The notes below the pieces were generated by a model, which saw only the letters and a list, made by a program, of their open reading frames with translations, was not told the DNA's origin and did not search any database. This document shows, piece after piece, positions 1,128 to 7,019 of a stretch of DNA of 35,662 nucleotides (the first letter of the stretch is position 1; the number at the start of each line of letters is the position of its first letter). A program made the position numbers and the translations under genes. Origin of the DNA: a virus (Duplodnaviria; Heunggongvirae; Uroviricota; Caudoviricetes). The stretch lies in the IMG/VR virus record IMGVR_UViG_2654587570_000002, positions 1 to 35,662 of that record. The stretch is one strand, 5' to 3'.

Positions 1128-1797
1128 AAAAAGACGGTTTAACCATCCATTAAAAATCGACGTGATTTTGTGCTTTCCGTATGAGGTGGCCAGCGTCATT
1201 TTTTAGTGAGAAATTCTGGTCAGGGGCGTTGGCTGAATGGTTATTTTATCGTGCCCATGCACAGGGAGGGGGCGGGTAAAATCTCTGGAGGTGATGCCTG
1301 TCAGGACCGCCGCCTGACCCTTCCTCACATCGCCGCAGGTTCGAAAACTTTTTTTGTGTCAGGTGTGCACGGAATTGATAGGTAAAACCTATATTAAAAA
1401 ATCACGGAAGCCGCGCCATTGCTGGATCAGTCAAAAATTCCACATCTCACGGCAGGCAAAAAAAGCGAATTTTGGGCCAGTTGAGGATAAAAAAGGGCTC
1501 ACTAGTTTTGCACATCCTGGTATCGGGGTCGTCAGCCTCCCGCCAGTAACCAGGTAACTAATCACGCTGGTGGGCATGATGCCGATGCCGGGATCTCGGT
1601 ATCGGTTTATCTGTGATCATCCACCAGCTTGATGACAGATAACAGGGAGTCATAACGATTAAAATTGTATATTTTTGCAGCAAACATTTTTAGCTACACG
1701 TTAAGCTATACGATTTTGAGTTTAAATTTTTTGTATTCAATTAAATCAAATGGTTATATGCACGTTTTGAATACTCTCGTGCCAAAAATCCCTTAAG

Positions 1798-1826
1798 AAC
1801 CAGCCTATTATGGCTGGTTTTTTTAT
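1798..1826 (+). terminator. rho-independent terminator-like hairpin followed by T7 run
   Basis: aaccagcc-tatta-tggctggtt followed by ttttttt; no convincing protein gene upstream on the + strand. Confidence 0.45.
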
Positions 1827-1992
1827 GATTGTTTTTTATGCGGAGAAATACCGGGGAATAATTGGGGTAAAACACCTTTAGGCTATTCACTTAGCCTACC
1901 ACCATCAAAATCTTTCCGAATGTATCCATCTCTTTTTTCTTATGCAGCTAAAACGAAGTCTTGATACTGTTTATTTACACAGATAAGAATAA

Positions 1993-2012
1993 TACTGTCT
2001 ACAAACGCAGTA
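1993..2012. promoter_or_regulatory. LexA (SOS) box-like palindrome upstream of the dinI-like remnant
   Basis: TACTGTCTACAAACGCAGTA fits TACTG-N10-CAGTA; sits 14 bp upstream of the ATG at 2026. Confidence 0.4.
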
Positions 2013-2025
2013 CAAAAGAAGTGTT

Positions 2026-2273
2026 ATGCGTATTGAGATCTCCATAACCAAAGACAAAATGACCAAATGCCAAATGGCGCTGTGGACGCGTTAAAGGAAG
2101 AGTTAACCCAACACATTGGCAAGCGTTATGACGATGTGGAGATGATCGTAAAAGCCACCAGCAACGATAGTTTTTCAGTTAGACATACTGCAGATAAAGA
2201 TTGAGCTAAAACTTTCGTTCAGGAAACTCTGAATGATACCTGAGAGTCTACTGAAGAGTTGTTTGTTCACTAG
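2026..2273 (+). pseudogene. dinI-family gene remnant (frameshifts and in-frame stops)
   Basis: ATG at 2026 gives [11 protein letters not shown] (DinI N-terminus is MRIEVTIAKTS as recalled), then similarity continues in another frame ([22 protein letters not shown]...SVRHTADKD) and after a stop in a third frame (AKTFVQETLNDT-ESTEELFV, compare DinI ...ILQETWESADDWFV). Confidence 0.6.
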
Positions 2274-2628
2274 TTAGCACGTAGGAAATCATTCAATACT
2301 CGCACTATCGGAAGTTCACCAGCCAGTCGTAGCACGTCCTTGCAAACGACGTGCCTACAATTTCAATCACCTCTCACCATCAGTTCTATCAATAATAATT
2401 AAACAGCGCCTAGACAAAATAAATAACAACAAGTCAACAACCTCGACAGGATGCCGATGGGATGATGAAGAGATAAGAAAGAATAACCAGTAAAGCCCTA
2501 AAACGTCAGCGTTCAGACGCGTTTTTTACTTAACCGGTAACAAATACGTTGTATCATAGCAGAATAAAATGATTGTTCTAAATCAGATTAACTCCTCACT
2601 TTTGTACAATGTCGCTTACAGGTATACC

Positions 2629-4518
2629 ATGAAATCCGAGACGCTAACTGTCCAACAACTTTTTCAAGACCGCCGACAATACTGTGTTCCATTCTATCAA
2701 CGTGCCTATGTATGGACTCAGCAAGACCAATGGTCAGCTCTACTGGAGGATATCCTAGAGAAAGCACAATCCCGGCTCTCGGGTACAAAACCAACTCCCC
2801 ATTTCCTTGGTGCGGTTGTACTGGAACCTCAATCAAAAAAAGGATTATTAGGTGTAGATTCCATACATATTATTGATGGTCAGCAACGATTGACCACTCT
2901 TCAATATGTTCTGGCATCCATCCGATTAGCATTACGTGCTACGGATCTTTCCAGCTTAGAGGCTCTCATTTCGCCTTGCCTGAAAAACTCAAACGAAGAC
3001 ACAATGCGAAATAAAGAAGTAGAACGCTTCAAACTGTGGCCAACTTTTCGGGATCAAACTCATTTTATTCAAAGTTTTAATGTTGAAAATATTGACGATC
3101 TCCGGGACGTATTCTCTGATAGTTTCACGCAGCATGGTACGTTGCGTAAGCGTTTTAATCACCCGCCATCACTAGAAGCATTATGTTTTTTTACTAAAGC
3201 CTTTATAAAATGGATTAAAATAGAAAACCACTCACCACAAGAAAATGCTGTAGCTCTAATTGAGGCTGTCTTAACAGATCTGAAACTGGTAAGCATATTT
3301 CTCGAAGCTGAAGATGATGCCCAAATAATTTTTGAAACATTAAATGGGCGAGGGGCGGAACTTCATGCTACGGATCTTATTCGCAACTATATCTTTATGT
3401 GCGCAGAGCATGAAAATATTAATGCTATTGAATTATATGAAAATGAGTGGAAGAGCTTTGAAGATAAATACTGGTCGGAAAAACAACGCCGTGGACGTAT
3501 TAATAAACCACGCATGGAGTGGCTAGTACATGCGACATTGCAATCAGAAAGGCAGCGTGAAATTGATCTGTCTCGCCTTTACAATGAGTATCGTGATTAT
3601 GTAAGTAAGGACTTGTCTTCACAACGAGCAGATCTGCAAGTAAAGCGCCTCAAACAATATGCATTACAATATAAAGAATTGGTTGATGGTTTTGGCACAA
3701 CCCCCATCTCACACTTTGGATATCGCATCGCAGACTATGATGTGACGACACTTTATCCGCTTGCTTTGTTCATTTCGATAGCTAACATCGCTGATGATGA
3801 GAAAGCAGCCATGTATAATGATCTTGTCTCCTACGTAGTACGAAGAGCCGTATGTGGCCTGACGCCAAAGAATTACAACAATGTATTTATGAATGTATTG
3901 CGGCACTTGGCTAAAACGGAAATTTCCAGTGTTGAGTTACGTAATATCCTCAATAACTTAAATGGCGAAGCCTCACGTTGGCCTGGTGACTCAGAATTTC
4001 TCAACGCTTGCATCAATGCTCCACTTTATCCTGGCAGGCTCGACGCACCGAAAATGCGCTCAATGTTAACGGAACTTGAAAGAGAACTTTGTCGCCAAGT
4101 GAAGACCGAAAAGCCTGATGTTCCAAATCTTTCTAATCTCGATATCGATCATCTTATGCCCCAAAGTTGGTATTCCTGTTGGCCTCTCGAAAATGGTCGT
4201 ATGGTGACAAATTCAGATGCTACGGTATTGAACCAAATTGTTCTGTCTGGAACCGATCTTACCCCTGAACAGCTACTGGTAAGGAAACGGCAACAAGCGA
4301 TAGCTACTTTGGGAAATCTAACTTTGCTTAACCTTAGCGTAAACCGTTCTGTTCAGAATGCTGTATTTCTGAAAAAACGTGATGCTCTCATCGTCCACAC
4401 CAATCTACGACTGAACATTCCACTTATAGTTAAGGATAAATGGGATGAGGATGAAATCCTGGAGCGGGGTAAAAATTTGGGGGAAATTGCATTGAAAGTA
4501 TGGCCAAAACACGATTAA
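2629..4518 (+). CDS. GmrSD-like type IV restriction-type nuclease (N-terminal DUF262/ParB-like domain, C-terminal DUF1524 His-Me finger domain)
   Basis: N-terminal FYQRAYVW and IIDGQQRLTTLQ (DGQQR motif); C-terminal LDIDHLMPQSW (DxDH motif); roughly 40% GC against higher-GC tail genes; ORF track opens at 2569 but the ATG at 2629 (MKSETLTVQQLF) is the more typical family start. Confidence 0.8.
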   Translation: MKSETLTVQQLFQDRRQYCVPFYQRAYVWTQQDQWSALLEDILEKAQSRLSGTKPTPHFLGAVVLEPQSKKGLLGVDSIHIIDGQQRLTTLQYVLASIRLALRATDLSSLEALISPCLKNSNEDTMRNKEVERFKLWPTFRDQTHFIQSFNVENIDDLRDVFSDSFTQHGTLRKRFNHPPSLEALCFFTKAFIKWIKIENHSPQENAVALIEAVLTDLKLVSIFLEAEDDAQIIFETLNGRGAELHATDLIRNYIFMCAEHENINAIELYENEWKSFEDKYWSEKQRRGRINKPRMEWLVHATLQSERQREIDLSRLYNEYRDYVSKDLSSQRADLQVKRLKQYALQYKELVDGFGTTPISHFGYRIADYDVTTLYPLALFISIANIADDEKAAMYNDLVSYVVRRAVCGLTPKNYNNVFMNVLRHLAKTEISSVELRNILNNLNGEASRWPGDSEFLNACINAPLYPGRLDAPKMRSMLTELERELCRQVKTEKPDVPNLSNLDIDHLMPQSWYSCWPLENGRMVTNSDATVLNQIVLSGTDLTPEQLLVRKRQQAIATLGNLTLLNLSVNRSVQNAVFLKKRDALIVHTNLRLNIPLIVKDKWDEDEILERGKNLGEIALKVWPKHD

Positions 4519-4540
4519 TGCAATTAATAAAATGATTATA

Positions 4541-4564
4541 GCGGCCTTACCTTAGTAAGGCCGC
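4541..4564 (+). terminator. stem-loop just 3' of the GmrSD-like gene
   Basis: gcggcctta-ccttag-taaggccgc, a perfect 9-bp stem 23 bp after the stop; weak T-tract. Confidence 0.4.
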
Positions 4565-4613
4565 TACTCACTATTAAATACTTTAATTTGCATCAAGAAC
4601 AGCAATGTCAGCC

Positions 4614-4742
4614 CTAGGTCTCGGACTTTGTACCGCTTATCTTGTTTTCAAAAATCAGCTCGCATCCTGCACAGTTCAGCGCATTACGTTGTAGATCTGT
4701 GTTCTGGTCATTTGTTGATACGCGTACATAGCCAATAAGCAT
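4614..4742 (-). pseudogene. Gin/Pin/Hin-family serine invertase gene, N-terminal 41-codon remnant
   Basis: Minus-strand translation from ATG at 4742: MLIGYVRVSTNDQNTDLQRNALNCAGCELIFENKISGTKSET-stop; matches the invertase N-terminus (catalytic-Ser VRVST motif) as recalled, then similarity ends abruptly. Confidence 0.8.
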
Positions 4743-4768: not shown

Positions 4769-5182
4769 ATGATGCCATTTGCTCGTTATTTCTGCATTTT
4801 CATAAACGTTGGTTTGGGAGAAGCAGCAAAACGAGGGGTGGGGACAGGGGAAAATCAGATACCGGACATGACCTCTTTTGCCAGTGGTGATGGATGGATG
4901 AAATTACCCAACGGGAAAATCCTGCAATATGGTCGAGGTGAGGCTATGCCGAAATTATCGACGCAAACAATGAGGATTACATTTCCTATCCCTTTCCCTA
5001 AAAAAGCGGATATCGCCATTCTTACCCATTCTGGCGATGGCGGTGCGCCTTTTGGTGCAGGGCGTGGATTCGTTATGTCCGTAGAAGGCCCAACATTAAC
5101 CGGCTTTAATTCTGCTTACAGAACTGCATCAACCAGCGACAAGGTGTCAATGACTTACAGTTGGTGGGCTGTTGGTGAATAA
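4769..5182 (+). CDS. alternative tail-fibre C-terminal variable domain (silent cassette in present orientation)
   Basis: Shares VGLGE at the crossover site with the constant part and would be in frame with it after inversion; no independent start expected (the ATG at 4769 lies outside the crossover site). Confidence 0.6.
   Translation: MMPFARYFCIFINVGLGEAAKRGVGTGENQIPDMTSFASGDGWMKLPNGKILQYGRGEAMPKLSTQTMRITFPIPFPKKADIAILTHSGDGGAPFGAGRGFVMSVEGPTLTGFNSAYRTASTSDKVSMTYSWWAVGE
4797..4822. repeat. hix/gix-like crossover site (left end of invertible segment)
   Basis: TTTTCATAAACG-TT-GGTTTGGGAGAA; the last 14 bp are identical to the reverse complement of the site at 6717-6742. Confidence 0.65.
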
Positions 5183-5193
5183 TTTTATTCAGG

Positions 5194-5646
5194 ATGATTT
5201 ATATGAACGAATATGTTTATAGCGCAAGGCATAATGCTTTTTTCCCTGTGGATATGATTGATAAATATAAATCAGAGGGATGGGATTTATCAGATGCTAA
5301 GGAGGTGAGTCAAAATATTATCAGTGAATTTATGGCTGAACCGCCACAAGGAAAAATCCGTATTGCCGGAGGTGATGGGCTGCCCGCGTGGGCGGATATT
5401 CCTGCCCCTACGCATGAAGAACTTACTGAAATTACTGAATCAGAAAGACAGCTACTAATTAATCAGGCCAACGATTATATGAACAGTAAACAATGGCCTG
5501 GTAAAGCCGCTATTGGTCGTCTGAAAGGTGACGAACTGGCGCAATATAATTTGTGGCTGGATTATCTGGACGCACTGGAGCTGGTTGATACCTCCAGTGC
5601 TCCAGATATTGAATGGCCTACGCCTCCGGCAGTTCAGGCCAGATGA
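5194..5646 (+). CDS. tail fibre assembly protein (Tfa/U'-like), silent cassette
   Basis: C-terminal ...LVDTSSAPDIEWPTPP, the characteristic Tfa ending. Confidence 0.75.
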   Translation: MIYMNEYVYSARHNAFFPVDMIDKYKSEGWDLSDAKEVSQNIISEFMAEPPQGKIRIAGGDGLPAWADIPAPTHEELTEITESERQLLINQANDYMNSKQWPGKAAIGRLKGDELAQYNLWLDYLDALELVDTSSAPDIEWPTPPAVQAR

Positions 5647-6220
5647 CATCCGGCGCGGTGCTGGTATCTGTTGCCGTCACCGCGTCAGTGTAATCCAGCA
5701 CGGCGTTAAGTCGGGTGTTTTCTGCCTGCGTCAGCTTCCTCCCGGCCTGCAATTTCAGTTGAATCAGACTAATGGAAACCATTGCAGCATCAATCAGCGA
5801 CTGCCGCTGTGTTTCTGCCATGTCTACTGCTGCTCTATGCTGTGCCTCGGTATCCGTCACCCATTTCTCACCATCCCATTTATCGTATGGCGTTAACGGG
5901 GCGATAGTGGTTGTCTTTTCAGGGTAATCACCCGGAGCTGTGATTTCTTTTGATTCTCCTGTTTCGGTGCTATAGACGATTTCACCGCGATGGTCTGGCA
6001 CATATTCCCATGAGTTAAAATCTGCAGAACGGCAAATTGCATAACCAGCTTTATATGAGCCAGGAGCATCTAAACAGGAACATGCCGGGATACCGACACC
6101 CACAGCAAGATATTCGGTTGATGTGGAAATATATTCTCGTGTTTCACCATCATAATTATAAACGGTAATATCTCCCGCCTTTGTGGCGATGAGTTCCTTA
6201 TTTAATATAGCTTTATCCAT
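5618..6220 (-). CDS. tail fibre assembly protein (Tfa/U-like)
   Basis: Strong resemblance to lambda Tfa as recalled (EYVPDHRGEIVYSTETGE..., ...DTSTAPDVIWPELP). Confidence 0.8.
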   Translation of the reverse strand: MDKAILNKELIATKAGDITVYNYDGETREYISTSTEYLAVGVGIPACSCLDAPGSYKAGYAICRSADFNSWEYVPDHRGEIVYSTETGESKEITAPGDYPEKTTTIAPLTPYDKWDGEKWVTDTEAQHRAAVDMAETQRQSLIDAAMVSISLIQLKLQAGRKLTQAENTRLNAVLDYTDAVTATDTSTAPDVIWPELPEA

Positions 6221-6696
6221 CAGGCAGCCCTCACGATATAATTAAAGGCAATGTTACGGGGTCGATTTTCGTTTGCAGTTGGAACAATTCTTGAAGCATC
6301 AAGGCCAATCACTTTTGGGTAAACACCGCCCTCGGACCTTTCTGTCACCATACTTCTGACTAAGGAGAAATAACTATTGTTCGTTGAGGGGTTCAAAGGC
6401 ACCACTGCCCCCTTAAACGAGCCTACTGATTCCCATATTGAATAATTTTCGGTGTTTACAGTCTTGAACTCACCATAGATATTACGTATGGCATCGCCCT
6501 GAGCGGATAATATTGTTCTCCCCGCATCCGCACTACGCCCATCATCCCAGCCACGAATAAATTCACCGCGTAAATCAGGCAATTTATTTGTCGGGTAAGC
6601 CTTTGCCAGTTCCGGGTATTCTTCAGCAGAAAAAGCCGCACCATTGCATTTCAGCCAGCCTGTCGGCGGAGTGGCGGAAGGCCACGGAACAGGCAC
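6220..6696 (-). CDS. tail-fibre C-terminal variable domain with phage tail-collar motif; currently in the -1 frame relative to the constant N-terminal part
   Basis: [35 protein letters not shown]...LPDLRGEF fits the tail-collar domain pattern; track start is a GTG; frame differs from ORF 6651-7019. Confidence 0.7.
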
Positions 6697-7019
6697 ACCG
6701 CAGGTAATGCAGAGCCTTCTCCCAAACCAAGGTTTTCGAGAGCCGTTTTCACCGTGCCATCCGATTTGATATCACCAAACGGATTCTTGCGGCTTAACAG
6801 CAGAGCACGAAGCGCGGTAAGCAACTGGTCGTTTCGCCCCTTCTCCAGGCTGGCACCGGATGCCTCCACCACGCTGCAAAGCTCCTCCTGCAACATATCA
6901 AAGTAGTCATCATCCAGATCGGTGGCAGGTGTGCCGGTCTGGGGGTTACCACGGGTAAAACCGTTCTTACCCGCGCCGAACTTATCCTTCTGCGCGGTTT
7001 TCGTGTCTATACGATGCAT
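6651..7019 (-). CDS. tail fibre, constant N-terminal part (terminates 20 codons past the crossover site in this orientation)
   Basis: [46 protein letters not shown]... resembles Mu S / e14 Stf N-termini as recalled; ...LENLGLGE spans the crossover site. Confidence 0.7.
6717..6742. repeat. hix/gix-like crossover site (right end, inside the tail-fibre gene)
   Basis: + strand TTCTCCCAAACC-AA-GGTTTTCGAGAG; compare hixL TTCTTGAAAACC-AA-GGTTTTTGATAA as recalled. Confidence 0.65.

Follow-up and report, generated by a model that had tools for sequence, protein, structure and literature searches.

The window, a 35,662-nucleotide stretch of viral DNA (IMG/VR record IMGVR_UViG_2654587570_000002), appears to carry a full-length SfII/e14-like prophage with a Mu-type tail. 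Its DNA-invertase gene, pin, is truncated after 41 codons. Very probably, the usual module of pin invertase and type IV restriction gene was replaced from about pin codon 41 by a DinI-like pseudogene, gmrSD and a terminator, leaving an orphaned tail-fibre switch that kept its cis-acting elements and was flipped in trans. The truncated gene, pin', and the cargo beside it comprise the following features.

4614..4742, minus strand: pin', 5' remnant of a Pin-type serine DNA invertase gene (translation, Pfam, DNA alignment, tblastn)
4592..4621, minus strand: junction zone; near-identity to pinE ends at 4620/4621, and weak colinear similarity may reach about 4592
2629..4518, plus strand: gmrSD, encoding a single-chain type IV modification-dependent restriction enzyme of 629 aa (mechanical ORF start at 2569)
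4538..4567, either strand: hairpin with a 13-bp stem, located after the GmrSD stop and before pin'; it resembles a terminator on the minus strand and, read on the plus strand, closely follows the 3' end of gmrSD

The minus-strand ORF starting with the ATG at 4742 encodes MLIGYVRVSTNDQNTDLQRNALNCAGCELIFENKISGTKSET* (translation of 4742→4614), that is, 41 sense codons followed by a TAG at 4616-4614 created by the junction. The initial annotation regarded this ORF as the N-terminus of a Gin/Pin/Cin/Hin invertase including the catalytic serine, and the homology searches agree. Residues 3-40 matched Pfam Resolvase (PF00239; E=4e-8, exceeding the curated cut-off), although only over profile positions 2-47 of 145. 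In tblastn, PinE of K-12 showed 41/44 identities (E=3e-23), the sole invertase-like match within the 35.6-kb window. The Din-family catalytic motif YxRVSTxxQ with its serine nucleophile is present as MLIGYVRVSTNDQ. A complete catalytic domain with the E-helix (about residues 1-135) is missing, the ORF ending after residue 41-42. No C-terminal helix-turn-helix DNA-binding domain was found in the window, where tblastn with full-length PinE and PinQ recovered residues 1-44 only and PinQ as the query gave no match. The check for an intact family member within the 35.6 kb thus returned nothing beyond pin', and the claim that most of the recombinase is gone also stands: about 143 of 184 residues are absent. 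What survives, a 126-bp stump, cannot yield an active recombinase, as it lacks the E-helix, the helix-turn-helix domain and all but the start of the catalytic domain. A promoter scan around the stump found no sigma-70-like promoter. Judged by its sequence, pin' is confirmed as a pseudogene of a prophage DNA-invertase, real but ordinary. It is already known, being annotated in RefSeq: PGAP labels the same stump in SFE8, SF-173, UTI89 and IHE3034 as “recombinase family protein, incomplete, missing C-terminus”.

From the crossover site to about coding nucleotide 121, the pin' DNA is about 98% identical to the intact pinE genes of K-12 e14 and strain GPEC1176. Megablast alignments with intact pinE genes extend to window position 4621 and, for some alleles, to 4608. 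The tail genes have a GC content of 0.55-0.60, which declines to about 0.40 in the cargo left of pin', in agreement with the earlier description of an abrupt end of similarity at about 4617-4620, where AT-rich cargo begins. Past the breakpoint, we counted on the alignment about 20/28 nt of colinear similarity to pinE with two indels, extending to about 4592. Degraded pinE similarity may therefore continue to that position; in a free local alignment, homology past the breakpoint was no better than in shuffled sequences (117 of 500 shuffles reached the score), and no claim is built on the 20/28 match.

The junction is widespread in Escherichia coli. A 351-nt probe comprising the gmrSD end, the stump and the crossover site matched 289 of 5,426 complete E. 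coli genomes at a coverage of at least 80%, and a junction 21-mer was found in 14 IMG/VR contigs. Misassembly was therefore rejected as an explanation of the structure. Searches of GTDB species representatives with a 29-mer and a 21-mer gave no match, and no record among the sequenced phage isolates of INPHARED spans gmrSD and the pin' stump. In the complete genomes examined (SFE8, SF-173, UTI89, IHE3034), pin' is flanked by GmrSD and no intact invertase is adjacent, which speaks against the concern that a misassembled contig hides such a gene. The distance from the junction motif to the crossover site is exactly 191 bp in 17 of 17 loci (three from E. coli and 14 from IMG/VR); this constant spacing fits an origin of the truncation in a single ancestral event. 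The segment alleles joined to the same breakpoint are of at least five types in these 17 loci. Eight of the ten polymorphic sites within the stump (4646-4731; 17 loci) fall at third codon positions. Such a pattern is odd for a pseudogene and suggests that tracts were imported repeatedly from intact pin alleles of other prophages by homologous recombination. In E. coli KMi006 (NZ_CP091691.1), the match extends over gmrSD but no further than about 68 nt into the stump; this looks like a secondary loss that removed the crossover site, and the switch would be dead there.

Beyond the stump lies the tail-fibre switch, composed of the following features.

4797..4822, minus strand: 26-bp crossover site adjoining pin', TTCTCCCAAACCAACGTTTATGAAAA, with its central dinucleotide at 4809-4810; identical to the K-12 e14 site
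6717..6742, plus strand: second 26-bp crossover site, within the tail-fibre gene, TTCTCCCAAACCAAGGTTTTCGAGAG, with its central dinucleotide at 6729-6730; identical to the K-12 e14 site
4811..6728, either strand: invertible segment of about 1.9 kb (Pfam, in silico flip, both orientations in E. coli genomes)
frame of 4769-5182, plus strand: alternative fibre C-terminus, gp53-like (Pfam)
5194-5646, plus strand: tail-fibre assembly gene 1 of a convergent pair (Pfam)
5618-6220, minus strand: tail-fibre assembly gene 2 of the pair (Pfam)
6220-6716, minus strand: collar-type fibre C-terminus (Pfam)
6731..7019, minus strand: constant 5' part of the tail-fibre gene, outside the segment

The two sites are inverted relative to each other, with compatible central dinucleotides (TT and AA), and the inverted repeats share about 20 bp of identity. 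The layout is that of a fibre switch: the constant 5' part lies outside the segment, and the alternative C-termini and assembly genes lie inside. In silico flipping of the segment fused the constant part in frame to the alternative C-terminus, giving an intact 215-aa fibre. In the position of an adjacent functional cis-encoded invertase, the locus has the 41-codon stump only. In the present orientation, the tail-fibre gene is frameshifted, with a stop 21 codons past the crossover site. About 20 nt inside the segment from the 6717-6742 site, the window reads CCTGCGGTGTGCC at 6690-6716 (minus strand) where relatives read CCTGTTGGTGTGCC or CCTGTTGGGGTGCC, a 1-nt deletion; this frameshift may reflect a real pseudogene or a sequencing error.

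The enhancers of Gin, Cin and Pin sit in the 5' coding part of the invertase gene. A motif scan, combined with distances compared with the Hin geometry, predicted the corresponding elements in the stump.

4658..4721, minus strand: predicted Fis-dependent recombinational enhancer, retained whole
about 4721-4706, minus strand: proximal Fis-like site, centred 95.5-96.5 bp from the crossover centre
4672-4658, minus strand: distal Fis-like site, GTGCAGGATGCGAGC, a perfect match to the degenerate Fis core, centred 144.5 bp from the crossover centre

Relative to a crossover centre at 4809.5, the scan found the two Fis-like 15-mers 48-49 bp apart, with a TAATG element in between, at 4686. In Hin, the 65-bp enhancer is situated about 99-100 bp from hixL; both of its ends carry a 15-bp Fis core, and the AT-rich elements ATTTA and TAATG are found between these cores (PMC3798978). 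The retained pin DNA reaches 4621, 37 bp past the predicted enhancer. Because the geometry matches that of Hin and the pin DNA extends to 4621, the predicted enhancer is probably retained whole inside the stump, and we infer that it functions. The initial annotation proposed that much of the Fis-dependent enhancer had probably been deleted; this part has to be revised, since the Hin geometry puts the predicted enhancer at about 4658-4721, inside the retained DNA. The in-cis requirements would then be intact: both 26-bp sites match e14 exactly, the stump holds the predicted Fis enhancer, and the switch would not be crippled in cis. As these elements remain, the 1.9-kb fibre segment may be viewed as an orphan substrate that can be flipped by a compatible Din-family invertase acting in trans.

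Comparison of complete genomes indicated that the switch has inverted since it lost its own enzyme. Two 881-nt probes were built from the SF-173 locus (gmrSD end, stump, crossover site and 450 nt of the segment), one as found and the other flipped in silico. At a coverage of at least 80%, with the truncated junction included in each match, the as-found probe matched 79 genomes and the flipped probe 24 genomes. Identity was at least 99.9% in 23 of the 24 flipped matches, which include IHE3034, APEC O1 and PMV-1. Both orientations thus occur among homologous loci with the same truncated gene, each assembly showing one orientation. Between IHE3034 and SF-173, there are no differences in the 7,027-bp left flank (ssrA through gmrSD and the stump) or in the 5,524-bp right flank. 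The 1,929-bp segment of IHE3034 is the exact reverse complement of that of SF-173, and UTI89 is the same as SF-173. The truncation is common to IHE3034, SF-173 and UTI89, and the exact flip between the crossover sites therefore postdates it, which supports a trans-acting enzyme. The earlier proposal that inversion now depends on an invertase encoded elsewhere thus gains indirect support. The added value of this comparative evidence, that an orphaned switch has flipped since the loss of its enzyme, is modest.

Trans-complementation among Din-family invertases is established: Fin of Fels-2 acts on hix, and Gin, Cin, Pin and Hin cross-complement. An experimental precedent is the e14 P segment, which is inverted in trans by PinQ, encoded on the Qin prophage (PMC12529663). 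The present locus may be a natural example of Din-family invertases serving each other's substrates, the enzyme being supplied by another prophage, a plasmid or a transient infection. The search for such an enzyme used composite blastn probes, the first joining the junction, the 3' part of pinE and pinQ, and the second joining the junction and pinQ only. The output was counts of matching places in 60 listed carrier chromosomes, plasmids being separate records. In UTI89 and IHE3034, the first probe matched at two additional places and the second at one, and this difference suggests one pinQ-like locus and one locus like the 3' part of pinE. Of the 60 listed chromosomes, all of which carry the truncated junction, 27 gave no other match to pinE- or pinQ-like DNA by blastn. 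Other invertase-like loci were present in 8 of 11 flipped and 25 of 49 unflipped chromosomes by our tally, numbers too small to interpret. PMV-1 (NC_022370.1), GN06489 and GN06758 are flipped, yet have no other pinE- or pinQ-like DNA at blastn sensitivity, which misses invertases below about 65-70% DNA identity. The enzyme that acted in these three strains could be divergent, plasmid-borne or since lost. A practical caution follows for annotation, as an invertible segment without a neighbouring recombinase can still vary.

The orientations might alternatively be a frozen legacy, the switch having died with its invertase and the two states either predating the truncation or stemming from homologous exchange of segments between prophages. 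Such a history would suit the very diverse segment alleles at the same breakpoint, the third-position polymorphisms of the stump, whose mosaicism is real, and the many carriers without a detectable second invertase. It is nevertheless quite unlikely, because neither segment exchange nor an event before the truncation, which all 17 loci examined share, would leave the pattern seen in IHE3034 versus SF-173 and UTI89: the inversion is clean, its ends fall exactly on the crossover sites, and the 14.5 kb compared are otherwise without a difference. Orientation also differs within one serotype, as in the O18:K1:H7 strains UTI89 and IHE3034. Inversion by means other than a Din-family invertase, namely RecA-dependent recombination at the short inverted repeats or an unrelated recombinase, is highly improbable. 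An identity of about 20 bp makes a poor RecA substrate, and the repeats share only that much; the sites are of the canonical Din-family kind and match exactly those of e14, on which PinE and PinQ act. On the other hand, exchange anywhere in the 20-bp identical repeat gives the same sequence as site-specific inversion, and PMV-1 and GN06489 are flipped with no chromosomal pinE- or pinQ-like DNA at blastn sensitivity. These two strains leave room for an unrecognised recombinase acting on the sites, although divergent or plasmid-borne invertases would escape such a chromosomal search.

A further question is whether selection has kept the stump as the enhancer carrier of a switch served in trans, possibly in concert with gmrSD as a defence against T-even phages. 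In favour of this, 37 bp of pin DNA separate the predicted enhancer from the breakpoint. In K-12, T2 adsorption is prevented when the e14 segment is inverted in trans (PMC12529663), and T-even phages are also a target of GmrSD (PMC4437046). By our estimate, however, about 85% of breakpoints placed at random in the 555-bp gene would leave the enhancer intact, and the truncation was a single event, hence without statistical power. At least one genome, KMi006, appears to have suffered the further loss of its site, and the fibre is frameshifted in the present orientation of the window. Selection of this kind therefore has a slim chance of being the explanation. We likewise consider it unlikely that the prophage has outsourced its invertase, retaining an enhancer-bearing stump for a segment that is still used and switching only beside another element that encodes an invertase. 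Should this be the case, switching might control host range or, like StfE2 of e14, block T-even adsorption, and the switch and the adjacent GmrSD would form a two-layer anti-T-even module.

Apart from the flipping of the orphaned switch, the locus offers little new biology, representing prophage decay at a known hotspot for the swapping of defence genes. The gmrSD product contains GmrSD_N and GmrSD_C of Pfam (E=3.9e-34 and 3.7e-20), so that a GmrS-like DUF262 domain and a GmrD-like HNH domain (DUF1524) are joined in one chain. It matches PADLOC mREase_IV over the full profile (1407 bits) and is identical to UTI89 WP_000834402.1 at 623 of 629 residues (99%). Type IV restriction of T-even phage DNA has been characterised for the single-chain GmrSD proteins of UTI89 and STEC_94C, and the gene is described as directly following the tail-fibre genes in an SfII-like prophage (PMC4437046). 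That paper contains neither “invertase” nor “recombinase”, and the stump between the fibre genes and gmrSD is undiscussed there. The present analysis adds a genetic context for this well-studied UTI89/Eco94 gene, which occupies the place of pin and mcrA in related e14-type ends.

The gmrSD gene is convergent with pin'. Together with a DinI-like pseudogene and the terminator, it forms a cargo block (about 1770-4620) that is conserved in relatives; elsewhere, the window consists of a myovirus prophage of the SfII/SfI/SfV type, with structural genes about 97% identical to theirs. The gene order in K-12 e14 is fibre switch, pinE, mcrA and icd'. In vB_EcoM-689R6, which is the closest record of a phage (its structural genes are about 97% identical), an intact invertase is followed by McrA, and in GPEC1176 an intact pinE adjoins a GIY-YIG nuclease gene. 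Given these three neighbours, the slot beyond pin is, by comparison of gene content, a variable defence-gene position. The ancestral state, as seen in vB_EcoM-689R6 and K-12 e14, is an intact invertase with McrA. Simple insertion of the cargo into pin was rejected: tblastn found no 3' part of pin anywhere in the window, and this points to replacement or deletion. The exchange of modules was probably one ancestral illegitimate event.

The closest known system is the e14 P segment with PinE of K-12, a member of the Din family that includes Gin of Mu, Cin of P1 and Hin of Salmonella. The two loci share identical 26-bp crossover sites, about 98% identity over the first 121 nt or so of the invertase gene, a split fibre gene with alternative C-termini, two tfa genes, an invertase and a type IV restriction gene at the prophage end. 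Unlike e14, the window has an invertase that stops after codon 41 and a convergent gmrSD with its own terminator instead of McrA, and its prophage is full length, whereas the K-12 e14 is a remnant. The action of PinQ on e14 (PMC12529663) is comparable in that the enzyme inverting a segment between Din-type sites comes from another locus, and the orientation polymorphism of the truncated carriers fits this precedent. A cis invertase also exists in e14, however, whereas trans supply would be the sole source for the window locus. As for the prophage-borne GmrSD of UTI89 (UTI89_C2960, the “UT enzyme”) and Eco94GmrSD (PMC4437046), the cargo protein of the window is 99% identical to that of UTI89, but the invertase stump noted here beside gmrSD is not discussed for those loci.

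Several minor observations concern the cargo and the prophage end. The DinI-like gene lies upstream of gmrSD at about 2029-2246 (coordinates mapped from a relative) and is frameshifted with an internal stop in relatives. In some carriers, gmrSD has an IS3-family insertion, and in others only an HNH endonuclease family protein is annotated (E. coli carriers with such variants are N66, c1-17, MS20654 and APEC E12053); the cargo may also be decaying in some lineages. In vB_EcoM-689R6 (ON470584.1, positions 1-2309), the intact invertase and McrA genes immediately adjoin a short side-tail-fibre gene, and no invertible segment is obvious in between; this record is a partial genome including icd and host genes, and represents another variant of this prophage end.

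Positions 1-1826 of the window do not belong to this prophage. They correspond to the terminal part of another element, with the C-terminus of a Nu1-type small terminase and a hypothetical gene, and are 99.5% identical to an element located next to narP in strain N12. The N12 element encodes an Icd-like protein, a primase, an SSB, a major capsid protein, a head decoration protein and a small terminase, a gene content resembling that of a capsid-forming phage satellite. Relatives of the prophage are instead located at ssrA. The two contexts have in common a 57-bp overlap at 1770-1826, which contains a hairpin and a T-run.
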